In this document: positions 6,470-25,557 of the stretch, piece after piece
How positions within the stretch are numbered: position 1 is the stretch's first letter
Layout of the letters: the number at the start of each line of letters is the position of its first letter
NCBI GenBank assembly: GCA_963727815.1
Contig: CAVSGV010000005.1
Span: 101,348-165,347, forward strand
Direction of reading: 5' to 3'
From: an uncultured bacterium
GTDB lineage: Bacteria > Margulisbacteria > WOR-1 > CAVSGV01
DNA length: 64,000 nt
Notes under the pieces: generated by a model
The model's input: the letters and a program-made list of their open reading frames with translations, nothing else
Databases searched by the model: none
Told to the model about the DNA's origin: nothing
Made by a program: the position numbers and the translations under genes

Positions 6470-7536
<1,067 letters not shown>

Positions 7537-12738: not shown

Positions 12739-12767
12739 TTGACTTTTGCTCTCCCGAAGTATATTAT
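12739..12767 (+). promoter_or_regulatory. Sigma70-type promoter for fliK-like operon
   Basis: TTGACT-17 nt-TATTAT followed by SD gaggagga and ATG 12785. Confidence 0.75.
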
Positions 12768-12784
12768 TTTTTGAGGAGGATATC

Positions 12785-14035
12785 ATGGCTGATGACATGA
12801 CAACGTCGGGCGGAAGCCTGCATCCGGGAAGGCCTGTAATATGGCCTACCGGAAAACCTACCTCCACGTCACAAACACAACAGACATCGGCGCAAACACA
12901 GACCCAGGCCGCTCAACAGGCCGCGAAGGCGGCTCAATCACCGCAGGAAGTCGCGCAGATAAAAGCTGCGGCCCAGGCCATTGAAAGAGGGCAGCAGTCC
13001 AGACAGTATACGCAGGCCGACATAGCTGAACTTCTGGTCTCGCAGAACATAGCCGACACCGAAACGAACAGGAACATGGCGACGCTGATGCTGCGCTACG
13101 GGGTCGAGATATCCAGTTCCAATTTCTCCATGCTTTCTTCCATGGTTGGCGGCGACACGAGCCAGACAATGCTGGAAGCCGGAGTTCTTCTTCTCATGAA
13201 AGGCGTCGACTTTCCTGCCGCAGCCAAGACTCTGGGCAAGTTCCTGGCGGAGAATCCGCAGCTTGCTTCGCAGATCATTTCCCTGAAAGGCAACGTCACC
13301 GATCTTCTTGCGGCATTGTCCATGGGACAGAACATCATGAGCCCGCAGCTGATATCACAGCTTGCCGGCGTGCTTGCGCAGTTCAACGAGGAAATGGACG
13401 GCCTGCCGAGCAAATATAAATTTTCCGGCAAAGGTTCGGCGGGAAGAGCGGACCTCTCCAGCAATGTCAGGGCGCTAAAGGCGCTGCTGGACGGCATTCC
13501 CGAGAAAAAGAACCTGCCCGACAGCGCGGAAGGACAGATAATCGAATCCACTCTCAACGCGACATCGAACAGGCTGGACCAGGTGGAGCAGAATCTTGTC
13601 GCGCAGGCCATGCTGTCAAAACAATCATCGCGGCCCGACGTGAATTATTCCTACTATCAGATCCCGAACGCCCAGGTCAAGCCGCCCACTACAGTGGACA
13701 TGATAATCAAGAGGAGCGAAAAGGAAGGCGGAAAGAAGATCGACCCGAACGATACCACCATCATCATGTCGTTCGAGACGCTTAACATGGGACGGATAGC
13801 GGTAAAGATGACGGTAAAGGACAAGAACATCGAATTCCTTTTCAACACCAACAACGATGAGATCAAATCTCTTGTGGCATCCAACTCGAAGGACCTTGCG
13901 AAGGCGCTGTCCGATAAAGATTTCAACGCTTCAAAGATGCAGGTCACGGTCAACCCGTCCATGTGCGCGATCAAACCGTTCCTCATCCCGTTCCTCGGCA
14001 TAGAGGACCTGATGAAGATAGACGTGGACGCATGA
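12785..14035 (+). CDS. FliK-like hook/needle length-control protein
   Basis: Gln/Thr-rich N-terminus; C-terminal T3S4-like domain (IIMSFETLNMGRIAVKMTVKDKNIEFLF...LAKAL); coupled to a FlhB-C-like gene. Confidence 0.7.
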   Translation: MADDMTTSGGSLHPGRPVIWPTGKPTSTSQTQQTSAQTQTQAAQQAAKAAQSPQEVAQIKAAAQAIERGQQSRQYTQADIAELLVSQNIADTETNRNMATLMLRYGVEISSSNFSMLSSMVGGDTSQTMLEAGVLLLMKGVDFPAAAKTLGKFLAENPQLASQIISLKGNVTDLLAALSMGQNIMSPQLISQLAGVLAQFNEEMDGLPSKYKFSGKGSAGRADLSSNVRALKALLDGIPEKKNLPDSAEGQIIESTLNATSNRLDQVEQNLVAQAMLSKQSSRPDVNYSYYQIPNAQVKPPTTVDMIIKRSEKEGGKKIDPNDTTIIMSFETLNMGRIAVKMTVKDKNIEFLFNTNNDEIKSLVASNSKDLAKALSDKDFNASKMQVTVNPSMCAIKPFLIPFLGIEDLMKIDVDA

Positions 14036-14358
14036 TGGCAGAAAAAGAAAAACAACCTCAACCACGGAGGACCGCTGTCGCAGTGCGGTACGACGTGGAG
14101 ATGGACAAAGCCCCACTCATTTTGGCTTCCGGACGCGGAGCGATCGCCGACGAAATACTCCGTGTCGCGGAGGAGAACAAGATACCTCTTTACGAGAACA
14201 GAGACCTTGCCACGATGCTGGCAAAACTTGAGATCGACACGGAGATCCCCGCGCAGCTTTACGTTCTTGTCGCCGAAGTCCTCTTCTTTGTTTACAAGCT
14301 GGACAAGATGGCGGAGAAGCGCGAAAAGCTGATGAAAAGAGCTCGAGAAGAACGATAA
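14032..14358 (+). CDS. Stand-alone FlhB C-terminal-like (EscU/YscU/YlqH-type) protein
   Basis: AVAVRYD....AP.ILASGRG.IADEI...AEENKIPLYEN..LA..L.KLEID.EIP..LY..VAEVL. Confidence 0.9.
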   Translation: MMAEKEKQPQPRRTAVAVRYDVEMDKAPLILASGRGAIADEILRVAEENKIPLYENRDLATMLAKLEIDTEIPAQLYVLVAEVLFFVYKLDKMAEKREKLMKRAREER

Positions 14359-14675: not shown

Positions 14676-15410
14676 ATGGTTGATAAGATCCTCGAAGTCG
14701 GAGGTGCGGGGATTGAAGGAGCGGACGCAAAAGTCAAGGCTCTTATGAACAACGTTGTTAACTCCGAGACGCCTGGATACAGGAAATCAGATGTTGTCAT
14801 TAAAGCCTTTCCTACCTATTTGGAACAAGCACAGGTCAGATCCAGCACATCGGTACCCCAGATCGAAGGCGTACACTACGATCAAACTCCGGGAACTCTT
14901 CTAAGGACGGGAAACAATCTTGACGTTGCCATAGGCGGCGAAGGATTTTTTGCCGTTCAAACGCCGCAGGGCGAAAGATACACAAGGGACGGCCGATTTG
15001 TGCTGGACCAGAACGGCAGGCTCCTTTCTGTGGCGGGCGATTATCCTGTCATGGGACTTGGCGGACCGATAATGGTCCAGCCGGGAGACAAGATAGAATT
15101 CACGAACGAGGGGAAGGTTATGGTCAACGGCCAGGAAATGAACACTCTCAAGGTGGTCAATTTTAATGACACATCATCTCTTCTGCCAGTTACCGGCGCT
15201 CTTTTCAAAGCGGATGACAATGCGCAGATCGCCATCAATGACGCGCCGAGGATCGTGAGCGGATACGTGGAGGCTTCGAATTCCAACGTTATCGAAGAAA
15301 CGATGAACCTTATTTATCTTAACAGGCTGTACCAGACCAACGCAAAGGTAGTAACCAGCAGGGAAACAATGTTCACGCGCGCGCTCGACATGGGCCGGAC
15401 GGCGCAATAA
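14676..15410 (+). CDS. flgF: Flagellar rod protein FlgF
   Basis: NNVVNSETPGYRK, TGNNLDVAIGGEGFFAV, RYTRDGRF, GYVEASNSN; precedes flgG. Confidence 0.88.
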   Translation: MVDKILEVGGAGIEGADAKVKALMNNVVNSETPGYRKSDVVIKAFPTYLEQAQVRSSTSVPQIEGVHYDQTPGTLLRTGNNLDVAIGGEGFFAVQTPQGERYTRDGRFVLDQNGRLLSVAGDYPVMGLGGPIMVQPGDKIEFTNEGKVMVNGQEMNTLKVVNFNDTSSLLPVTGALFKADDNAQIAINDAPRIVSGYVEASNSNVIEETMNLIYLNRLYQTNAKVVTSRETMFTRALDMGRTAQ

Positions 15411-15426
15411 TAAAGGAGGAGTAATC

Positions 15427-16230
15427 ATGTTCGAACCGCTTTATGTAGCAGCTTCAGGACTGAACGTGCTTCAGGACGAGATGGTGGACATCACGAACAA
15501 CCTTGCCAATGCGAAAACGGTGGCTTTCAAGAAAGGCCGCACCGAAAAGGAGAGCCTCTTTACGATCGAGAAAACATTCTCTTCGGAACTGAGGGACCAG
15601 ATGGCCGCTCAGGGCGTAACGCCGCCATTCGGCGCGAATGAATACGGAACAGGCGTGCGCATAGCCGCGACCCCGAAAGATTTCTCTCAGGGGACAATGG
15701 AAATAACCAACAATCCGCTCGACCTCGCGATAGAGGGCGACGGATTTTTCCAGTTCAAGATGCCGGACGAGAGCTTTGCTTACAGCAGAGCTGGCAATCT
15801 GCACATCGACAATGAAGGCGCTCTGGTTGATCCGAACGGCAACAGGCTCGATCCCGCAATAACCATTCCGCAGGGAGCTACAAAGGTATTGATAAAACAG
15901 GACGGCACGGTCTCGGTCACTCTGAATAACAGCAGCGAAATGCAGGACGTGGGACAGATCCCAATTATCAGGTTCAATAATACGGAAGGACTGCGGAGCC
16001 TGGGCCAGAACATGTACAAGGATACTCCGTCTTCGGGCGACCCGATATACGGAACGGCCAACACGGAAGGCTTCGGGTCGATAAACCAGTACTCCCTTGA
16101 AAGCTCGAACGTGGACGTGATCTCGGAAATGATGCGCATGGTAATGGTCCAGCGTATATTCGACACGGTATCAAAAGCGGTGCAGAGCTACGATGGCATG
16201 CTCTCTTCCGTGAACAGCATGAAGCAATAG
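15427..16230 (+). CDS. flgG: Flagellar distal rod protein FlgG
   Basis: NNLANAKTVAFKK, G.GVR, TNNPLDLAIEGDGFFQ, YSRAG, LESSNVDVISEM. Confidence 0.92.
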   Translation: MFEPLYVAASGLNVLQDEMVDITNNLANAKTVAFKKGRTEKESLFTIEKTFSSELRDQMAAQGVTPPFGANEYGTGVRIAATPKDFSQGTMEITNNPLDLAIEGDGFFQFKMPDESFAYSRAGNLHIDNEGALVDPNGNRLDPAITIPQGATKVLIKQDGTVSVTLNNSSEMQDVGQIPIIRFNNTEGLRSLGQNMYKDTPSSGDPIYGTANTEGFGSINQYSLESSNVDVISEMMRMVMVQRIFDTVSKAVQSYDGMLSSVNSMKQ

Positions 16231-16253
16231 AAAGAACAGCGGAAGGATGAACG

Positions 16254-16982
16254 ATGAAGCTTAATAAACTTATAATATCCTTGATGGTGCTGGCGGCGGT
16301 CTTTTCTTCCTCCGCTTATGCCGTTACCGTCAAGAATGACATCTCCAGCAGGATAACGAGCGCGATAATCCGATATCTTGTAAGCAAGGATGCTTCTTAT
16401 GAGGGCAAGAGGATCGAAGTAGAATACAAATACGCGGACAAGACATTCAATTCCCTGAAGGGCAGGAGCGGTACCGTGACCTTCGTGGTCGCGGAGTTGT
16501 ATCCGGATTTCAAACCGATAGGCAACATAATAATCCCCATACAGGTAGTGGTGGACGGCGAACCGAAAGAAAAATTGTTCATCAGGACAAAGGTGTCGGT
16601 ATATGACAATATCGTCATAGCTACAAAGCGCCTGAAGAGAGGCGACATAATAGGCACTACGGAAGCGGCCGTGCAGGTAAGGGACATTGCCACCTTGAAT
16701 TCGCAGGCCATAAAGGACATAAATATCGTTCTCGGGAAAGAAGCAAAGACTTTCATACCGATGGACAATCCGATTTACGAATACATGATCAAGGAAAAAC
16801 CCCTGATAAAGAAGAACGATGCGGTCACCATAAAGGCTTTCAATGATGACATCTCGGTGGAGGCCGACGGCATTGCGCTGGAGGACGGCCTGATGGGAGC
16901 GCAAATAAGAGTGAGGAATTCCCGCTCGGGGAAAGAGGTCATCGCGGTCATAACGGGCACGGGCGAGGTGACGGTAAAATGA
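16254..16982 (+). CDS. flgA: P-ring formation chaperone FlgA
   Basis: Signal peptide, SAF-like domain, G.ALEDG.MG.QIRVRNS.SGK.V.A. Confidence 0.88.
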
Positions 16983-17320
16983 TGAGGACAATGCTGAAGT
17001 CGAAACTTCACCGGCTGACGGTCACCGATACGAACGTGGACTACGCCGGCAGCATAACCATAGACAGGGCGCTTATCAAGGCGGCGGACATCCTGCCTGG
17101 CGAAAAGGTCCAGGTGGTGGACGTCAATAACGGCGCCAGGTTCGAGACATATGTGATAGAAGGCCGCGGAGGGGAAGTTTGCGTGAACGGCGCCGCGGCA
17201 AGACTGGCGAACAAGGGCGACAAGGTCATCGTGATAGCTTATGCGTTAGTCGACGACAAAGAAGCAAAAAAGCTGAAACCGAAGATCGTTCTCGTCAACG
17301 AAAGGAACAAGAAAAGATGA
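16979..17320 (+). CDS. panD: Aspartate 1-decarboxylase
   Basis: [38 protein letters not shown]...GDKVIV. Confidence 0.95.
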
Positions 17321-17950
17321 AGGCAAAATGTAAAATGAAAAGTGCAAATATGTTGTGCGCTACACGCGTCATAATAATGTTCCTCCTTATTTTTTCATTT
17401 TTCATTTTAAATTTTTCATTTGCTTTTGCGGATTCCATCTGGACCAGACTCAAGCACGTCGCCTTATTCGGTAAGCAAGTCTTTCAAAGTGGGGGATGTC
17501 GTTACGGTCCTGATAAATGAATCCACTTCAGCTGTGACGAAAGGCGAGACGGACACGAACGCGAACGATTCACTGGGGCTTGCTTTCAGTTCAAGCCTGG
17601 CTTCTTTTTATCATCCCAGCAAGAACGTTACCGGATCTGGCGGAAGCACTTATAAAGGCTCTGGCTCCACGACCAGGAGCAACAGCGTTACGGCAAAGGT
17701 TGCGTCCGTCGTCATAAAGGTGATGGCCAACGGGAATCTTTACATCGAGGGCGATCACAAAGTGGAAGTTAACGGCGAAACTCAGACGATATCGATATCC
17801 GGCATCATAAGACCGAAGGACGTAAGCCTTCAGAACACGATATTCTCTTATCAGGTGGCTGACGCGCAGGTTTCGGTGAAGGGGAAGGGAGTGGTCGGGG
17901 ACGCGGAAAATCCGGGATGGTTCACCCGCTTCTTCAACTGGATATTCTAA
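17317..17950 (+). CDS. flgH: Flagellar L-ring protein FlgH (frameshift near 17446; SPase I-type signal, no lipobox)
   Basis: AFA-DSIW then [57 protein letters not shown]. Confidence 0.9.
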
Positions 17951-18990
17951 TGGGAAATTTTAAATTTAAAATGAAAAGTGCAAAGTTGATGAGCGCTTCG
18001 CGCGTCATTATAATGTCTTTCCTTATTTTTTCATTTTTCCTTTTTAACTTTGCATTTGCCGCATCGCCGGCAGTAAGGCTTAAGGACATAGCGCACGTTC
18101 TGGAAGCCAGGGACAACCAGCTTATGGGATTCGGGCTCGTGGTGGGACTTAAGAACACGGGCGACACCATCCAGACCGGATTCACCAGGCAGGCGTTGAC
18201 AAATCTTCTCTCCAGAATGGGCATCGCTCCGCAGGACCAGGAATTCAAATCCCGCAACGTCGCGGCCGTAATGGTCACCGCGAAACTGCCTCCTTATGTT
18301 AGGGCAGGACAGAAGATCGATGTTACTGTATCTTCTCTCGGCGACGCGACATCGCTGATGGGAGGAACTCTCCTCATGACGCCGCTTCAGGGACCCGATG
18401 ACAACGTTTACGCTGTTGCGCAGGGGCCGGTCGCGCTGGGTATTTCGACAAGCGACATGGACGTTTCCGTCGTGGTGGAGAAAAGACAGACCGACGTCGG
18501 CCGCATAACAGGCGGCGGCATAGTTGAAAAAGACGTTCCTGTTTCCGTCGGCGACAATTTTATTTCCATAGTGCTGGATAATCCCGATTACACGACCGCA
18601 ACAAGGATCGTGAGCGCGATGAACGATGCCGGGATCTCCGCGAGGGCGAGGGACGCGGCAACCATCGTCGCGTCCATGGATTCTTCGGGAGACCAGGTGG
18701 CTTTCATTGCACGGGTCGAGAACCTCAGCATTGTTCCGGATACTGTGGCGAAGATCGTTATAAACGAACAGACAGGGGTCATCGTGATGGGAGAGAACGT
18801 GAGGATAGCCCCCGTGGCAGTTTCTCTTAGCGGCACAAATGTCACCGTCTCCACAATTGCGGGGGGCGCGACAATGTCTGATCTGGTCTCTTCGCTTAAC
18901 GCGATAGGCGTAAAGCCAGCCGACCTTGTGGCGATAATCCAGGCAATAAAATCTTCGGGCGCAATATCGGCAGACATAGAGGTGATGTGA
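17950..18990 (+). CDS. flgI: Flagellar P-ring protein FlgI
   Basis: RLKDIA...RDNQL.GFGLVVGL..TGD, NVAAVMVTA.LP, VSSLGDATSL.GG.LLMTPL.GPD..VYA.AQG. Confidence 0.93.
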   Translation: MGNFKFKMKSAKLMSASRVIIMSFLIFSFFLFNFAFAASPAVRLKDIAHVLEARDNQLMGFGLVVGLKNTGDTIQTGFTRQALTNLLSRMGIAPQDQEFKSRNVAAVMVTAKLPPYVRAGQKIDVTVSSLGDATSLMGGTLLMTPLQGPDDNVYAVAQGPVALGISTSDMDVSVVVEKRQTDVGRITGGGIVEKDVPVSVGDNFISIVLDNPDYTTATRIVSAMNDAGISARARDAATIVASMDSSGDQVAFIARVENLSIVPDTVAKIVINEQTGVIVMGENVRIAPVAVSLSGTNVTVSTIAGGATMSDLVSSLNAIGVKPADLVAIIQAIKSSGAISADIEVM

Positions 18991-19271
18991 TGGAACAGAT
19001 AACAGGAATAGATCCGCTTTACGCTATCGGCTCCAACATAAGCGTCAACAATAATGTGCGCACAAAGGCTGACGCGCAAAAGGAATTCGCGTCGGTTTTC
19101 GTGGCCCAGATATTGAAAGAGGTCTACAAGGGGCAGAGCGAGATGTTCGGCGAGGAAGGAAGCCTGGGGCTTTTTTCCGACAACCTTTATAACGATATCA
19201 TGATGTCCAAGATATCCAGCGAGATAGCTGGCGACAAATCGTTCGGATTTGAGAAATTGTTGATGCAATGA
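18987..19271 (+). CDS. Small FlgJ N-terminal (rod-binding)-like protein
   Basis: KEFASVFVAQILKEV..LFSDNLYND..SKISSE, GFEKLL; directly after flgI; no muramidase domain. Confidence 0.7.
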   Translation: MMEQITGIDPLYAIGSNISVNNNVRTKADAQKEFASVFVAQILKEVYKGQSEMFGEEGSLGLFSDNLYNDIMMSKISSEIAGDKSFGFEKLLMQ

Positions 19272-20013
19272 TGGCATTAAAGAAAAAAACAATGAAACCG
19301 ATAAAGACCGAAGAGGACATGCCGATAAAGATGGCGGAAATGTACATGCCCCTGGTGCATTCCATCGCGTCCATCGTTTCCAGCAAGGGTCTTCCTCCCA
19401 GCATAGATTACAACGACCTAGTGGCCGACGGCACCGTGGGGCTGATGAAGGCGTGGAAAAGTTTTGATAAGAACAGAGGAGTGAAGTTCGAGACGTACGC
19501 TTCTTACAGGATAAGGGGGGAGATACTCGACGGCCTGAAGAATTACAACCCGGTCCCTTACAGGGTCCAGGTAATGATAAGGGATGTTGCCAAGAACGGC
19601 TATTCCGCTCTCACAAAAAAAGGAGCAAAGGGAAAGGAAGAAGAGAGAAGTCATACGAAAAGAAAGAGATATCCGAAGAAGATTTCAAGAAAGCCGTAAC
19701 AAAGATAAGGAAGATAGTCTCCGCCTCCGCGCTCATGTATCTCATGTCGCTTGAATCCGCGCAGGATTCCGGCATGGAAATAAACGTGTCCGCCGAAAAA
19801 ACTCCCGCCGAAGAATTGGAATTCTCGGAACTGAGGTCCAGGCTCAAGAAGTCGCTGTCCGATCTTCCCGATACGGACCAGAGGGTCATAAGCCTTTTCT
19901 TTGACCAGGACCTTAGCCAGAAGGAGATCGCGTCCAAGCTGAAACTTTCCAGGAGCAAGGTCAACAGGATAATCGGCAAGACGGTGGTGTTCTTAAGGGA
20001 GAAGCTGAAGTAG
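19268..20013 (+). CDS. fliA: FliA/WhiG-like sigma factor (frameshift near 19650)
   Basis: Region 2 DLVADGTVGL.KAW..FD..RGVKFETYASYRIRGEILD; region 4 L..L....QRVISLFF..DLSQKEIA.KL.LSRSKV. Frames join as ...EEKKSYEKKEISEEDFKKAV... Confidence 0.8.
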
Positions 20014-20015
20014 CC

Positions 20016-20330
20016 ATGAGCGAACAACAGGTGCAAAGGGTCCAGCTTTTCGACGACACGTTCAATCATCTGAACGACGCGCTGGACCAGTCGACAAAGA
20101 TACAGGCCGTCATCGCGCAGAACATCGCGAACGCGAAAACGCCAGGGTATGAAGCGCTTGAATTCGACAAGGTCCTGAACAAAGCGGTGAAGAGGGCGAA
20201 CAAGAACGTCGTGTTCGAAGAAGAAATGGACTCGCTTTCAAGGAACGCCATAGAGCATGCCGCATACGTGAAGCTGATAGCGGAGAAGATAGCGGTCATA
20301 AGGACAGTAGTGACGCAGGGAAGGAAGTGA
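20016..20330 (+). CDS. flgB: Flagellar proximal rod protein FlgB (short)
   Basis: IAQNIANAKTPGY, EEEM..L..NAI; first gene of the flgB-flgC-fliE block. Confidence 0.85.
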   Translation: MSEQQVQRVQLFDDTFNHLNDALDQSTKIQAVIAQNIANAKTPGYEALEFDKVLNKAVKRANKNVVFEEEMDSLSRNAIEHAAYVKLIAEKIAVIRTVVTQGRK

Positions 20331-20335
20331 TCTGA

Positions 20336-20761
20336 ATGGGACTTAACGACGCATTGGACATAAGCGTTGACGGGATCAACGCGAACCGGATATTCATGGA
20401 GGTCATCGCCAGCAATCTTGCGAACATAAACACGACCAGGACCGTTCAGGGAGGCCCGTACCGCAGGAAGATACCAGTACTTGCGGAAAAACCGATGGAA
20501 TTTTCGGAGGTGCTGAGCAACGCGCAGAAGTCGGCGGGCGGCGTCCAGGTCGCGGAGATAAAGGACGACGACTCTCCGTTCCAGATGGTGTTCAATCCCG
20601 GACATCCTGACGCGGACAAGAACGGCTATGTTAAGCTGCCGAACGTGTCGATGGCCAAGGAAATGGTGGACATGGTCGAAGTGTCCAAACTGTACGAAGC
20701 GAACATCGTTGCCTATAACGCCACAAGAAAAATGGCGCAGGACGTGCTTACGATCCAGTAG
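20336..20761 (+). CDS. flgC: Flagellar proximal rod protein FlgC
   Basis: IASNLANINTTR...GGPYRRK, PGHPDAD.NGYV.LPNV, YEAN. Confidence 0.95.
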   Translation: MGLNDALDISVDGINANRIFMEVIASNLANINTTRTVQGGPYRRKIPVLAEKPMEFSEVLSNAQKSAGGVQVAEIKDDDSPFQMVFNPGHPDADKNGYVKLPNVSMAKEMVDMVEVSKLYEANIVAYNATRKMAQDVLTIQ

Positions 20762-20796
20762 GAAGTTCCAAAAATGATCAGGGAGGGAAATGAACA

Positions 20797-21123
20797 ATGG
20801 TGAATCCGCCGATCCAGCCGATATTACTATCAGCGGTGGAAGATGTTGCCGCGCCGAAAGCAGCTCCGGCTCCCGTTTCAACCACGGACCCGTCGGGGAA
20901 CGTTTTTGATCAGGTGCTGGGCAAAGCGATCGACGCGCTTAACGGGGTCTCACAAACGGAATTCACGGCTGACAAGCTGATGGATGATTACATCGCGGGC
21001 AAAGCTGAACTCTCTGACGTCATGATCGCGACATCAAAAATGACCATCGCGGTCAACCTGGCCGTATCAACGATAACTTCGGCCGTAAGCTCGTTCAAAG
21101 AAATTACGTCAATGTCAATATAG
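20797..21123 (+). CDS. fliE: Hook-basal body protein FliE
   Basis: F..VLGKAID.LN.V, G...LSDVMIA.SK; synteny. Confidence 0.8.
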   Translation: MVNPPIQPILLSAVEDVAAPKAAPAPVSTTDPSGNVFDQVLGKAIDALNGVSQTEFTADKLMDDYIAGKAELSDVMIATSKMTIAVNLAVSTITSAVSSFKEITSMSI

Positions 21124-21147: not shown

Positions 21148-22528
21148 GTGGCAGAACCAACACCACAGCCCCAGGGAAGACAAATAGCGATTATAGCGAC
21201 CGTTGCCATGGTCATTTTTTTCACTTTATTCCTTGTCGGGCTCAGATCATGTTCATCTTCTTCCGATAAAGGTCCGACAGGCGAGAAGCTTCCGGCCGAT
21301 GTCGCCATATATTCCAACCTGGATCTGAAGGATTCCGCGATGGTTATCACCCGCCTAAAGGAACTGAAGATCCCTTATCAGATAAAGGACGAGGGCCGCA
21401 CGGTAGCGGTGCCGAGGGGAAGGGCCGACGAAGCGCGGCTGGGGCTCGCGGAAAAGAACCTTCCGGCGGGCGGGACCGTTGGCTGGGAGATATTCGACCA
21501 GTCAAAACTGGGAGCGACAGATTTTGACAGAAGGATCCAGTTCATCCGCGCCATTTCCGGCGAGCTTTCAAGGACCATAGACAGGATAAGCTCGGTGGAA
21601 GACGCGCGCGTACAGATAGTCATTCCCGAAACCCAGCTTTTCCAGGCGACCACCGCTCCGGTGACGGCATCAGTGCTCCTCAAGCTGAAAACCGGGGAGA
21701 CGCTGTCTCAGGGCCAGGTGAACGGCATAGTCTATCTGGTCGCGAACAGCGTTGAGAACCTGAAGCCGGCGAACGTGACCATCATCGACACGAACGGCAC
21801 GATTCTTACGGGAGCGGAAACCCCGCAAAAAGAGATCGTCCAGGCGCCGCCCGAGAACCGGCTCGTAGAACAACCTGAAGAACAGGTGGTCGTGAAACCG
21901 GAAGAAAAATCTGTCCTGGAAGTCCAGACAAAACTGGAGCTGGAGGACAAACTCACAAATAAAGTACAGTCGCTTCTCAATAAGCTCTATCCTCCGAACA
22001 TAACTATCGCTAGGGTCAACGTCGAACTCGCTGAACGGCAAAAAGATAACCGTCGTTATCCTGCTTGATAACAACTTCAGGCTGACCAACGCGCTCAAGA
22101 GGTCCACTTTCGATACGGTATCCGCCGCCATAGGATACGACAAGGACAGAGGGGATAAGATAATATTAAAGAGCGTCAAGTTCCGCTCCGCGGGAACCGC
22201 GCAGACCTATGCGAAGACTGGGATGGCGCAGAGCATATTCACGATCCAGAATCTCAAGATAATTTACAGGAAAATGGGCAGACATTCCGCATATGTCATC
22301 GCGGCGATAGTTGTCATCTTCTTCTTCATGCTCATTTCAATGTTCAGGGGAGGCAGGAAGGAAACTCCATTGGAGGCAGCCGGCGAGCCCGAAACGCCTG
22401 AAGAGGTGATGGAGACCAGCACAGGAGAAGTACCGATCGTCTCTGAAATGAAGACCCTTGCGGCGCAAAACCCGCAGCAGGTGGCGAACCTCATAAAGGA
22501 CTGGGTCGAAGAAGGAGGGGGCTCTTGA
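21148..22528 (+). CDS. fliF: MS-ring protein FliF, collarless form (frameshift near 22030)
   Basis: TM1; RBM1-2 (GWEIFDQSKLGATDF, ALSGELSRTI-like, ARV.IVIP..LF, ASV.LKL); compact RBM3 (..VSAAIGYDKDRGDKI); TM2; C-terminal NPQQVANLIKDWV. Confidence 0.88.
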
Positions 22529-23025
22529 ACGGGATAGAAAAATCGGCGGCCATCCTCTCTCTGCTCGGTGACGAGCTGTCGCACAAGATACTCGGCTACC
22601 TTCCGGAATCCGACGCTATCTCCATAATAAACGCTTCGGAGAACCTGAAGACGCCCACAAGGGAAACTCTTCTTGAGATCGTGTCGGAGTTCAACAATTA
22701 CATGTCCAATCCCGAGAACATGCCGTCCGAAGCAGCGACTTCCGGCGAGGGCGAAGAAGCATCCGCTCTGCCAGCGAACACGCCTCTGGAGATGATCACA
22801 GCGGCTTCACCGGAGAACCTGACAAAAGCTCTTCAGGAGGAGAGGCCGGAGATCGCCGCTTACGTTCTGTCCCATCTTCCCGTGGAAAAAATATATGAAG
22901 TGCTGCAGATGCTCGGCGACATGAGGGGCGCCGTAGAATCCAGGCTGATATCCATAAAAGACGTGCCAATGGCGAAGGAGCTTGAGGAAAAAGTGCTCAA
23001 CACGATATCCGCGAGGCTTTCCTGA
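22525..23025 (+). CDS. fliG: Truncated FliG (N and middle domains only)
   Basis: EKSAAILSLLG.E, EIVSEF, L.EERPEIAAYVLSHLP, RL..I..V. Stop overlaps the fliH start (TGATG). Confidence 0.82.
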   Translation: MNGIEKSAAILSLLGDELSHKILGYLPESDAISIINASENLKTPTRETLLEIVSEFNNYMSNPENMPSEAATSGEGEEASALPANTPLEMITAASPENLTKALQEERPEIAAYVLSHLPVEKIYEVLQMLGDMRGAVESRLISIKDVPMAKELEEKVLNTISARLS

Positions 23026-23759
23026 TGGGATTGATCAAAAAAGGAAGTTTCATCGACAAAGGCATACTTCTTCTCAAAGAAGAAGCCCGGGCCGTCGAGA
23101 TAAAGCCGGAAGTCATCGAAGAACCCGCCAAAGAAGACATAATACCCGAGGAGTTCCTGGAAGCGCACGCCGGTGAAGGCAAGGAAGAGCTCGTAGGGTA
23201 CGCGAAGAACGAGGCTGAGGACATAATCCGCAAGGCGATGAATGAAGCGAACTCAATAAGAGAGCAGGCAAAAGAATCCGGACTTGAGGAAGCCCGCGCG
23301 TTCGCGGAGGAGAACGCCTCCGACAAAGTAAAGGAAGCGCTGCAGACGCTCAACGAGGCGGTCATTGAGAGGAAAAAGATCATCAAGGACGCGGAAGCCG
23401 AAATATTGAGGCTCTCGCTGAAGGTCGCGGAACAGGTCATAAAATCCGAGGTCTCTCTTCACAGGGACGTAACGCTCAACATAGTTTCGGACGCCATAAG
23501 CCGCGTAAGCGACCGCGAACAGGTCATAATACGCGTCAACAGGGATGACGTCGACAACGTTAAGAAATACAAGGACAGGATAGGCAGCGTTGTTGACGGC
23601 ATCAAGAGCCTCTCCATCGTCGAGGATGCCAGCGTCGAACCCGGCGGCTGCGTCATAGAGACGAACCTCGGATACGTTGACGCGAGGATCTCCACCAAGC
23701 TGACCGCCATTGAAGAAGCCTTCCGAAAGGTCACCGCCGGCGGCGGCGCGAGCAAGTAA
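23025..23759 (+). CDS. fliH: FliH/SctL-type ATPase stator
   Basis: GLIKK N-terminus, A...G repeats, IRVN..D, VEPGGCVIETNLGYVDARI.T.L. Confidence 0.9.
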   Translation: MGLIKKGSFIDKGILLLKEEARAVEIKPEVIEEPAKEDIIPEEFLEAHAGEGKEELVGYAKNEAEDIIRKAMNEANSIREQAKESGLEEARAFAEENASDKVKEALQTLNEAVIERKKIIKDAEAEILRLSLKVAEQVIKSEVSLHRDVTLNIVSDAISRVSDREQVIIRVNRDDVDNVKKYKDRIGSVVDGIKSLSIVEDASVEPGGCVIETNLGYVDARISTKLTAIEEAFRKVTAGGGASK

Positions 23760-25073
23760 ATGTCCGAGCTCGATCTTGAAAAATACAGCCGCGCTATAGA
23801 GCATGTCGACCTGGTCAAGGTCATCGGCAAGGTCATACAGGTAGTGGGGCTCATCATAGAAGCCCAGGTCCAGGGGGTAAGCATAGGCGATCTCTGCTCC
23901 ATAAGACTGGGAAAAGAGGAGCACGAAACATTTGCGGAGGTCGTGGGTTTCCGCGAAGGAAGGGTGCTTCTCATGCCTCTCGGAACTACTTCTGGAATTT
24001 CTCCGGGCAGCCAGGTGACAGCGGCGGGACATCCTTTAAAAGTAAAAGTGGGTCCCAGGCTTTTGGGACGCGTCCTTGGCGGTCTCGGCGAGCCCATAGA
24101 TGACAAAGGCCCGATAATATTCGACACCGAAAATTCTCTTGATGCTGACCCGCCCGATCCCGTGAAAAGACCCAGGGTCACCGAAGTTCTGCGCGTCGGG
24201 ATACGCGCCATCGACGGGCTTCTTACCTGCGGCAGGGGACAGCGCATCGGTATATTTGCCGGGTCCGGCGTGGGCAAGAGCACCCTCATGGGTATGATCG
24301 CGAGGAACGCGGAAGCGGATGTTAACGTTATATCGCTGATAGGTGAGCGCGGAAGGGAAGTGCGCGACTTCATCGAGGAATCTCTCGGCGATGAGGGACT
24401 GAAAAAATCCGTCGTAGTCGTCGCCACCAGCGACCAGCCGCCGCTCATACGTCTCAAAGGCGCTTTCGTCGGCACGTCAATCGCCGAATATTTCAGGAAC
24501 AAGGGTCTGAAGGTGATATTGATGATGGATTCAGTTACGAGGTTCGCCATGGCGCAGAGAGAGATCGGGCTTGCCACCGGAGAGCCGCCTACCACTAGAG
24601 GCTACACGCCGTCGGTCTTTGCTCTGCTTCCCAAACTGATGGAAAGATCGGGAACTGCTGAAGTGGGTTCGATCACCGCTTTTTATACGATCCTTGTCGA
24701 AGGCGACGACTTCAACGAGCCGATAGCCGACCAATCACGGTCAATTCTTGACGGGCACATAATACTTTCCAGGGACCTCGCGGCAAAGAACCATTATCCA
24801 GCCATAAATGTTCCGCAGAGCGTAAGCAGGTTGATGACCAACTTGGTTTCCGACGAGCACAAGGAAGCTGCGGCGAAACTCAGAGAAGTTTTAGCCAGAT
24901 ATTCGGAAGCTGAAGATCTCATCAATATCGGCGCTTACGTCAAGGGCAGCAACCCGAAGATCGATTACGCCATAAGCAAGATAGATGAAGTGAATGAATT
25001 CCTGAAACAGGGAACGTTCGAGCAGACCGATTACGAGGAAACGGTCGAGCGTCTTCTAAGTATATTTTATTAA
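23760..25073 (+). CDS. fliI: Type III export ATPase FliI
   Basis: GQRIGIFAGSGVGKS, IGERGREV, MDSVTRFAMAQREIGL, SILDGHIILSR. Confidence 0.96.
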   Translation: MSELDLEKYSRAIEHVDLVKVIGKVIQVVGLIIEAQVQGVSIGDLCSIRLGKEEHETFAEVVGFREGRVLLMPLGTTSGISPGSQVTAAGHPLKVKVGPRLLGRVLGGLGEPIDDKGPIIFDTENSLDADPPDPVKRPRVTEVLRVGIRAIDGLLTCGRGQRIGIFAGSGVGKSTLMGMIARNAEADVNVISLIGERGREVRDFIEESLGDEGLKKSVVVVATSDQPPLIRLKGAFVGTSIAEYFRNKGLKVILMMDSVTRFAMAQREIGLATGEPPTTRGYTPSVFALLPKLMERSGTAEVGSITAFYTILVEGDDFNEPIADQSRSILDGHIILSRDLAAKNHYPAINVPQSVSRLMTNLVSDEHKEAAAKLREVLARYSEAEDLINIGAYVKGSNPKIDYAISKIDEVNEFLKQGTFEQTDYEETVERLLSIFY

Positions 25074-25089: not shown

Positions 25090-25557
25090 ATGCCAAGAGA
25101 ACAGAAACCGGGAAAATTCCAGTATCCTCTTGAGGCGGTCCTGAAGGTGAGGGCTATAAAAGAAAAAAAGGAGAGGGAGAGGTTCGCCGACAAGCAGAAA
25201 GCCTACATGACCGAGAAGGAAAAAGAAGAACAGATGGAAGAGGACAAAAGAGAAAAGGAAGGCGAGCTAAAGAGCATCATCAAGAAGGGCCCCATAACTC
25301 AGTTCGAAAAAGTTCTTAGGCGCCACGCGCATCTTGGCGTCCTCAAAAAAGACATCGACAATCAGATAGAAAAGGTAATAGACGCGTCAAAAAAACTCGA
25401 GGACCAGAGGGCGAAACTTGTGGAGTCCATGAAGGACCGCAAGATAATCGAAAAGAACAAGGAACACAAGCTGGATGAATACGATAAAATGATGAAAGAT
25501 CTTGAGATAAAATTCCTTGACGAGATCGCCACGGAGAGATTTAAGCGGGGGCTTTAG
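25090..25557 (+). CDS. fliJ: FliJ-type export chaperone/stalk
   Basis: [12 protein letters not shown], coiled coil, LDEIA; follows fliI. Confidence 0.8.

Follow-up and report, generated by a model that had tools for sequence, protein, structure and literature searches.

FliG is the single protein that joins the export and assembly functions of the flagellum to the generation of torque. In canonical FliG the EHPQR motif binds FliM, and a charged torque helix in the C-terminal domain contacts MotA. Truncation of the C terminus of Escherichia coli FliG reportedly leaves flagella that assemble and do not rotate. Contact between the C-terminal domain (FliG_C) and the stator is established (e.g. 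PMC6663468). Here we describe a natural FliG that ends before this domain. It is encoded in a window of 64,000 nucleotides (contig CAVSGV010000005.1 of assembly GCA_963727815.1, positions 101,348 to 165,347 of the forward strand) from an uncultured bacterium whose phylum is probably Margulisbacteria; one relative, fully syntenic at this locus, carries the NCBI label 'Candidatus Margulisiibacteriota'. Coordinates are those of the window unless another contig is named.

Other flagellum-related systems invite comparison. Buchnera retains full-length FliG, and its reduction is recent and host-restricted. In injectisomes, SctK (OrgA/MxiK/PscK) connects the SctQ pods with the ring in the inner membrane. 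The reduced, filament-less basal bodies of Buchnera have been proposed as protein exporters (Maezawa 2006 and Toft & Fares 2008, cited in PMC3459982). Abby & Rocha 2012 (PMC3459982) describe repeated exaptation of flagellar type III secretion systems (T3SSs), and an 'intermediate' non-flagellar T3SS (NF-T3SS) in the Myxococcales.

The apparatus predicted here resembles each of these in part. As in Buchnera, filament and motor genes have been lost and the export gate, ATPase, rod, rings and hook-level parts kept: FliPQR, FlhA, FlhB, FliHIJ, FlgBCFGHI, FliE and FliF are present, FliC and MotAB absent, and a secretion role is proposed for both. Unlike in Buchnera, FliG itself is reduced, class-wide and in environmental bacteria, and FliM (with a new N-terminal motif) and FliF are remodelled. 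Like SctK, the short FliG is proposed to be a small helical, non-torque adaptor from a membrane ring to a FliM/FliN-type platform. The likeness is functional only: a fold relationship with SctK was considered and rejected, as no SctK was found among the Foldseek or PDB-profile matches and no sequence similarity was detected, and the short FliG occurs with L and P (L/P) rings and a flagellar rod, not with a secretin and needle. Like the Myxococcales 'intermediate', the system appears to be a T3SS without motility-essential elements, of the kind regarded as a step by which the flagellum was exapted for translocation (PMC3459982); unlike the Myxococcales loci, which belong to the NF-T3SS branch and have no rod, L/P-ring or outer-membrane parts, it is clearly flagellar by its genes (FliE, FlgB/C/F/G/H/I) and retains a FliG remnant.

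No description of a two-domain FliG was found in the literature on truncated FliG, on the flagella of Margulisbacteria and Omnitrophota, or on Termititenax. One published table of flagellar genes (PMC6349859, Supplementary Data 2) has columns that, judging by their genome codes, presumably represent Saganbacteria. In these columns FliG, FlgK, FlgL, FliD, FlgM and FlgN are entered as not found, whereas genes of the basal body and of export are marked present; 'flagell' occurs nowhere in the main text of that paper. The broader Margulisbacteria are described as 'motile by polar flagella' in one published supplement.

A two-domain FliG between fliF and fliH

The short fliG, its parts and its immediate neighbours are as follows.

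21148–22528, + strand: fliF, ~459 amino acids (aa), split into 21148–22068 and 22223–22528; Pfam YscJ_FliF, 202 bits
22448–22513, + strand: FliF C-terminal peptide MKTLAAQNPQQVANLIKDWVEE, presumed FliG_N-binding helix; conserved class-wide
22525–23025, + strand: fliG, short form, 166 aa plus stop; FliG_N, linker and FliG_M, without FliG_C
22525–22722, + strand: FliG_N, the N-terminal armadillo domain (ARM_N), residues 1–66; Pfam FliG_N; presumed FliF-C-binding part
22723–22782, + strand: disordered, acidic, Pro/Ser/Ala-rich linker, residues ~67–86; predicted local distance difference test (pLDDT) score <50 at 67–83; no Pfam alignment
22783–23022, + strand: FliG_M, the middle armadillo domain (ARM_M), residues ~87–166; Pfam FliG_M; the protein ends at the end of ARM_M
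22840–22851, + strand: E106-R107-P108-E109, counterpart of EHPQ in the FliM-binding motif EHPQR; from sequence and alignment
23025–23759, + strand: fliH, 244 aa; Pfam FliH, 73.5 bits
23760–25073, + strand: fliI, T3SS ATPase, 437 aa; ATP-synt_ab 301.6 bits, T3SS_ATPase_C 97.2 bits

The start codon of fliG is a TTG that overlaps the TGA of the upstream open reading frame (ORF) (ctcTTGAac) and is preceded by a Shine-Dalgarno sequence, GAAGGAGG. The stop codon, TGA at 23023–23025, shares its last base with the ATG of fliH, at position 23025. The overlap itself is ordinary, because a full-length FliG of the same phylum has it too (locus L059). What is unusual, judged by alignment, is the absence of the 134–153 C-terminal residues by which canonical FliGs run past the end of the short form.

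An original prediction, made from the letters of the window, had described a 166-aa FliG with N and M domains and no C domain, stopping with a TGA that overlaps the fliH ATG at a clean boundary and not at a frameshift. Each of these points was borne out. In Pfam searches FliG_N matched residues 1–66 (42.3 bits, cut-off 25; model positions 2–67 of 104) and FliG_M residues 96–149 (40.5 bits, cut-off 25), and no FliG_C was found in the 166-aa protein even at an expect value (E) of ≤1. Between the two domains, the linker stands in place of the last FliG_N helices and helix NM. Among 42 short FliGs, residues G3, A7, L11, S12, L14 and G15 vary little or not at all. The predicted change in the EHPQ motif also holds; at the alignment position of EHPQ the protein reads ERPE, within LQEERPEIAAY. 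E106 does not vary within the short-FliG family, in which conservation of R107 is at least 90%; the motif is ERPQ in most members and ERPE in the close relatives of the window.

The boundary with fliH was found again outside this assembly. A Logan contig from public run ERR11594402 is 100% identical over 22380–24569 (2190 bp), with the same 166-aa product followed by fliH; this run may also have fed the assembly of the window. In the loci of relatives, fliF, fliG, fliH and fliI were contiguous in 13 of 13 cases, with an intact fliF of 420–493 aa, a short fliG of 154–195 aa, and the fliG stop and fliH start overlapping or at most ~4 nt apart. None of these 13 loci carries a full-length FliG.

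The AlphaFold model of the short FliG has a pLDDT of 75.5, with helical domains at residues 3–61 and 87–165 on either side of the disordered linker. Foldseek searches of the PDB with this model returned FliG almost exclusively; matches to the MgtE N-domain were weak and ranked lower. The M domain superimposed on Thermotoga maritima FliG_M (4qrm_D) with a template modelling (TM) score of 0.81 and a root mean square deviation (r.m.s.d.) of 1.5 Å, and matches to 4qrm_D and 4fq0_C overall gave TM scores of 0.78–0.82 and r.m.s.d. of 1.5–1.6 Å. The N domain superimposed on 5tdy_D, T. maritima FliG_N in complex with FliF_C, with a TM score of 0.68 and an r.m.s.d. of 1.3 Å. A profile of the 42 short FliGs searched against the PDB matched only FliG, and covered residues 3–170 of Salmonella FliG (331 aa).

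Compared with canonical FliG (Salmonella/E. coli, T. maritima and Aquifex aeolicus; PDB 8umd, 3hjl, 5tdy and 4qrm), the short form thus has homologous N and M armadillo domains, the same operon place between fliF and fliH, and a conserved partner peptide at the C terminus of FliF. It differs in being half as long, in having neither the last FliG_N helices, helices NM and MC, ARM_C, the Gly-Gly linker nor the torque domain, in carrying ERPE (mostly ERPQ in the family) for EHPQ, and in having no stator partner encoded with it. It also falls far under the whole-protein cut-off of the FliG equivalog (TIGR00207/K02410), scoring 36.7 bits with NCBIfam TIGR00207 (cut-off 226.7) and 43 with NF004260 (cut-off 550); by comparison, TIGR00207 gives 379 bits for a canonical FliG from this phylum. 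Because the TIGR00207 score is below the cut-off, short FliGs are labelled 'hypothetical', and may be scored as absent.

Distribution, predicted partners and missing motor genes

Of the 41 genomes examined from this class, 39 encode the short form of FliG, with pairwise identities across the class of only 25–35%. An exhaustive search of a library of 1.8 billion representative proteins gave ~35 clusters (50% identity) of FliG of 155–185 aa, and full-length FliG appeared there as weak matches only (E > 1e-8). A related locus from Bacteriovoracaceae (L018) was examined as a possible short FliG outside the phylum and rejected, as it is a full-length FliG. In our phylum sample of 146 genomes, the canonical arrangement fliF-fliG-fliH-fliI, with a FliG of 333–344 aa, occurs in four families (f44–f47), and short FliG in many other lineages. 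A maximum-likelihood tree of the N+M region placed 32 of 32 short forms on one side of a branch, apart from full-length FliG, with a Shimodaira–Hasegawa-like approximate likelihood ratio (SH-aLRT) of 92, a moderate support from a quick search. This topology is compatible with a single ancient truncation of FliG.

Genes for torque, filament and chemotaxis were searched for in the same genomes. No FliG_C was found anywhere in the window's genome at E ≤ 10, and neither the genome nor its family has a separate FliG_C gene; the possibility that the domain is hidden in the N terminus of FliH or elsewhere in the genome was likewise rejected, Pfam and tblastn having found none. The MotA/ExbB family (PF01618) and CheW were each absent from the window's genome and from 36 of the 41 class genomes, and Flagellin_N, which covers FliC and FlgL, from the window's genome and from 40 of the 41. 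Searching the window's genome by tblastn with MotA, MotB and a FliG_MC fusion protein (described below) of relatives gave noise only. Class-wide, MotA was present in five genomes, FliG_C in four, flagellin in one and CheW in five. In G004, a closed, 95%-complete genome of the same family in which the flagellar genes are intact, FliG_C, MotA, flagellin and CheW were all not found. The absence of FlgL follows from the Flagellin_N search, and that of FlgK from the published table only. Thus the stator genes, flagellin and junction proteins, and the CheY-binding peptide of FliM together with chemotaxis genes, all of which a rotary motor would be expected to have, are missing.

In the phylum, flagellin was found in 13 of 13 genomes with a canonical FliG of 335–344 aa and in 2 of 133 others. 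Loss of the filament therefore accompanies short FliG, as flagellin is confined to canonical-FliG genomes plus two. The only two flagellin-domain matches outside the canonical-FliG families are G022:C4:62270-62632 (L025) and G047:C64, which could stem from contamination, horizontal transfer or a remnant; the open frame in G022 is only 253 aa long.

The C-terminal peptide of FliF is common to the class and to the canonical-FliG lineages of the phylum (..DPE.FA.iLrrWLsE..). We take it to be the ligand of FliG_N from the FliF_C:FliG_N structures 5tdy and 5wuj, both of which were Foldseek matches. Since this peptide is conserved, the contact between FliF and FliG_N has very probably been kept. In the window's family FliF is ~459–477 aa long, and its match to YscJ_FliF_C, the third ring-building motif (RBM3), is weak and partial (23.0 bits in G004, below the cut-off); FliF of canonical-FliG lineages gives a full YscJ_FliF_C match.

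FliM and FliN are encoded in 40 of the 41 class genomes. In the window's own genome fliM lies outside the window, at C3:367056-368237, and its product keeps the middle and C-terminal domains. The GGPG motif of FliM, the counterpart of EHPQR, reads LGFQ in the window's genome and LGSxD in most relatives, leaving a single conserved G. A contact between FliG_M and FliM, remodelled on both sides, is plausible. At the N terminus, class FliMs (L032–L049) have (K/S)LxLxPA(I/L)GDWTTYKP, ..LPPAIGDWTTYKP.., which replaces the CheY-binding peptide LSQxEIDxLL.

In some relatives FliG_C is found in another protein. Four of the 41 class genomes encode a protein of 480–512 aa that consists of a signal/RBM3 region (YscJ_FliF_C), a membrane helix, FliG_M and FliG_C. 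Its gene lies directly before motA-motB, and in G014 it is inside the flagellar operon, between murF and fliK. This module adjoins motA in many phylum genomes that have short FliG too, e.g. G094. The form of ~480–550 aa (L013 364-1833, L043 3096-6020, also L050–L057) stands before motA/motB in many phylum genomes; its gene is often far from fliF/fliH and is sometimes followed by an additional paralogue with FliG_MC only. There are also soluble FliG paralogues of ~350 aa with a C domain (L065–L067; G061, G090 and G048), which adjoin motA/motB and not fliF/fliH, and form a clade of their own in the N+M tree (SH-aLRT 100). The FliG_MC paralogues next to motAB share FliG_M with the short FliG and occur in genomes that have it; they differ from it in having FliG_C and no FliG_N, in adjoining motAB instead of fliF/fliH, and in being absent from the window's genome.

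The fusion protein could belong to a separate stator-driven machine, or it could be the outer half of a rotor that has been split. It carries just those parts that are missing from FliF and FliG, which suggests that the rotor was divided into two modules, one for export and one for torque, and that the torque module was later lost in most of the class. A fuller version of this scheme is possible, though doubtful: an export module of FliF (with reduced RBM3) and FliG(N+M) would be set against a torque module of RBM3–membrane helix–FliG(M+C) with MotAB, the latter discarded by the window's class, so that what remains would be a non-rotating, flagellum-derived T3SS passing the outer membrane through L/P rings and not a secretin, with short FliG in the role of SctK. 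If true, the flagellum would here have been exapted for secretion independently of the injectisome.

Role of the short FliG

Our results show which domains the protein has, how widely they are conserved and which genes accompany it; the binding partners, the absence of rotation and the role in export we infer from these. The short FliG is rather probably a static adaptor that docks a FliM/FliN/FliH/FliI platform on the membrane and supramembrane (MS) ring of an export apparatus without filament or stator. It would be a functional, ancient, lineage-wide two-domain form, made up of ARM_N, a flexible linker and ARM_M, from which helix MC, ARM_C and the six-helix torque domain have been lost. The N domain would hold the conserved C-terminal peptide of FliF and the M domain would hold FliM, so that the FliM/FliN ring, and via FliN the FliH-FliI-FliJ ATPase complex, would be docked beneath the MS ring and export gate. 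The predicted machine keeps export gate, ATPase, rod, L/P rings, a short hook-like protein, FlgD and FliK rulers. Having no stator, torque surface, hook–filament junction proteins, filament or chemotaxis input, it would not rotate, and would most likely serve for type III export or secretion across the envelope, or build a short surface structure.

The original prediction had seen the protein as an adaptor between FliF and FliH/FliI rather than a rotor. The second half of this statement is well supported by our results: FliG_C, MotA/MotB, flagellin and CheW are absent, and the pattern is class-wide. The first half is not supported in that form, because the retained domains are those that bind FliF and FliM, and FliM and FliN have been kept. 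On the same grounds, together with the class-wide conservation of FliM/FliN, a chain FliF-FliG(NM)-FliM/FliN-FliH-FliI is likely. An adaptor that bridges FliF directly to FliH/FliI is unlikely; coupling of fliG to fliH is also found in canonical operons.

Several observations weigh against a static export adaptor. No exported substrate or effector was identified. The two FliK-like rulers, FlgD, the short FlgE-like protein and the sigma-28-like factors have been retained, which indicates that some length-controlled external structure is still made. The FliG_M–FliM interface is altered on both sides (EHPQ to ERPE, and GGPG to LGFQ or LGSxD), so that binding of FliM by the short FliG is an assumption, and without ARM_C the canonical ARM_M–ARM_C stacking of neighbouring FliG subunits is impossible. 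The short FliG is accompanied by a separate FliG_MC-bearing protein next to motAB in 4 of the 41 class genomes and widely in the phylum, and in such lineages the apparatus might still be driven. As this module exists, short FliG alone is no proof against rotation in every lineage; the non-rotary case for the window's genome rests on the module being absent too. The calls of absence rest partly on relatives, since the window's assembly has a completeness estimate of 70% and contains indel errors.

If the adaptor reading is right, a natural, ancient, class-wide FliG cut down to its FliF- and FliM-binding halves would show what evolution keeps once rotation has been abandoned, and would provide a minimal adaptor for structural and genetic study of how the C ring or sorting platform is anchored. 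A large environmental group that is flagellated by gene content probably uses a flagellum-derived secretion or surface apparatus, which bears on the prediction of traits from metagenomes and on the long-standing question of the exaptation of T3SSs from flagella. Annotation is affected as well, through the failure of the protein to reach the FliG equivalog cut-offs.

The basal body might instead have been kept as a scaffold or signalling structure that does not export, such as a sigma-28-type checkpoint, an attachment site or an outer-membrane tether, with the short FliG completing the scaffold. Two sigma-28-like factors are encoded in or beside the two flagellar clusters, the L/P rings and rod have been retained without a filament, and the Campylobacter MS ring and FliG are reported to be required for a signalling checkpoint (PMC3760246). 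However, FliPQR, FlhA, FlhB, FliHIJ, the FliK rulers and an extra FlhB C-terminal-domain paralogue have all been retained. A gate, ATPase and rulers exceed the needs of a passive scaffold, and therefore point to continued, switchable export; we consider the scaffold unlikely.

It is less likely again that the apparatus still rotates, torque having moved to another protein, so that the short FliG is only the inner half of a rotor divided between two proteins. In relatives its counterpart would be the RBM3–membrane helix–FliG_M–FliG_C protein with MotAB, and in the window's genome an unrecognised analogue. The position of the fusion gene before motA-motB in 4 of 41 class genomes (within the flagellar operon in G014), its presence by motA in many short-FliG genomes of the phylum, and the weak or partial match of the window family's FliF to YscJ_FliF_C, the part that the fusion carries in full, all agree with such a division. 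Yet the window's genome and its whole family, closed G004 included, have no FliG_C, MotA/ExbB or fusion homologue, and flagellin, FlgL and CheW are absent too. Rotation would thus require a wholly novel stator and torque surface, for which there is no candidate gene.

A decaying relic, in which the short FliG is the non-functional leftover of a gene that has lost its 3′ half, is very improbable. Decay would fit the broken state, in this assembly, of fliF, the sigma factor, fliN, flhB, flhA and the fliK-like gene, and the loss of the filament and motor genes. The frame changes lie in the sigma-28-like gene (19699–19735), in fliF (~22040), in mreB (6500–7536) and, on contig C3 of the same genome (C3:368200-373900), in fliN, flhB, flhA and the fliK-like gene. 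Both L029 and the closed genome G004 have unbroken orthologues of the broken flagellar genes. Because the breaks extend to the housekeeping gene mreB, and relatives have intact copies, we read these frame changes most likely as assembly indels and not as decay, and decay of the whole cluster into pseudogenes was rejected on the same grounds. A completeness of 70% for a genome in 6 contigs is low, and fits this picture. Moreover, the open frame, signature residues and translational coupling of the short fliG have been kept in 39 of 41 genomes at 25–35% identity, which would not be expected of a pseudogene. That the truncation itself is an artefact of assembly or gene calling (a premature stop or a lost frame), as the indel errors elsewhere in the assembly might suggest, is scarcely credible and was rejected, given the identical Logan contig, the 13 collinear relatives with the same length and fliH junction, and the absence of FliG_C-like sequence from the downstream frames and from the whole genome.

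The two flagellar gene clusters

The remaining flagellar genes of the window are listed below.

12746–14358, + strand: FliK-like ruler (429 aa) and stand-alone paralogue of the FlhB C-terminal domain (131 aa); Pfam
14676–18990, + strand: flgF, flgG, flgA, panD, flgH and flgI (distal rod, L/P rings); Pfam; same order in L029 and G004
19268–20013, + strand: sigma-28-like factor, split into 19268–19699 and 19735–20013; Sigma70_r2 and Sigma70_r4 on separate ORFs
20016–21123, + strand: flgB, flgC and fliE (proximal rod, adaptor); Pfam Flg_bb_rod, Flg_bbr_C and FliE
25090–25557, + strand: fliJ, 155 aa; Pfam FliJ, 30.3 bits; YscO-like

A second cluster, on contig C3 (intact in G004), contains genes for FliK-like, FlgD-like and short (280-aa) FlgE-like proteins, fliM, fliN, fliO, fliP, fliQ, fliR, flhB and flhA, and another sigma factor. 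Each cluster has one FliK-like ruler, at 12746–14358 in the window and at C3:364875-365673 in its own genome. The ruler in the window matches Flg_hook (34.3 bits), and the FlhB-C paralogue, which overlaps the end of the ruler gene, matches Bac_export_2 (72.5 bits, positions 258–335). The retention of two rulers and of this paralogue suggests that switching of substrate specificity has been kept, though late substrates are not recognisable.

The frame change in fliF lies near a run of five A residues, at ~22035–22045, and a three-frame reading across it gives the continuation ...KKITVVILLDNNF...; tblastn places fliF in two collinear pieces. The 101-aa ORF that precedes fliG is the C-terminal part of FliF, comprising the second membrane helix and the tail ...NPQQVANLIKDWVEE. 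For the exact 306-aa FliF fragment no other record was found. The sigma-28-like factor has intact orthologues of 245–254 aa.

Between flgI and the sigma factor, at 18987–19271, there is a 94-aa ORF without a Pfam match, in the position expected for a FlgJ-type rod cap, with a 110-aa orthologue at the corresponding place in L029. The gene panD, for aspartate 1-decarboxylase, lies within the flagellar operon, between flgA and flgH at 16979–17320; the association is conserved, as panD occupies the same place in L029 and G004.

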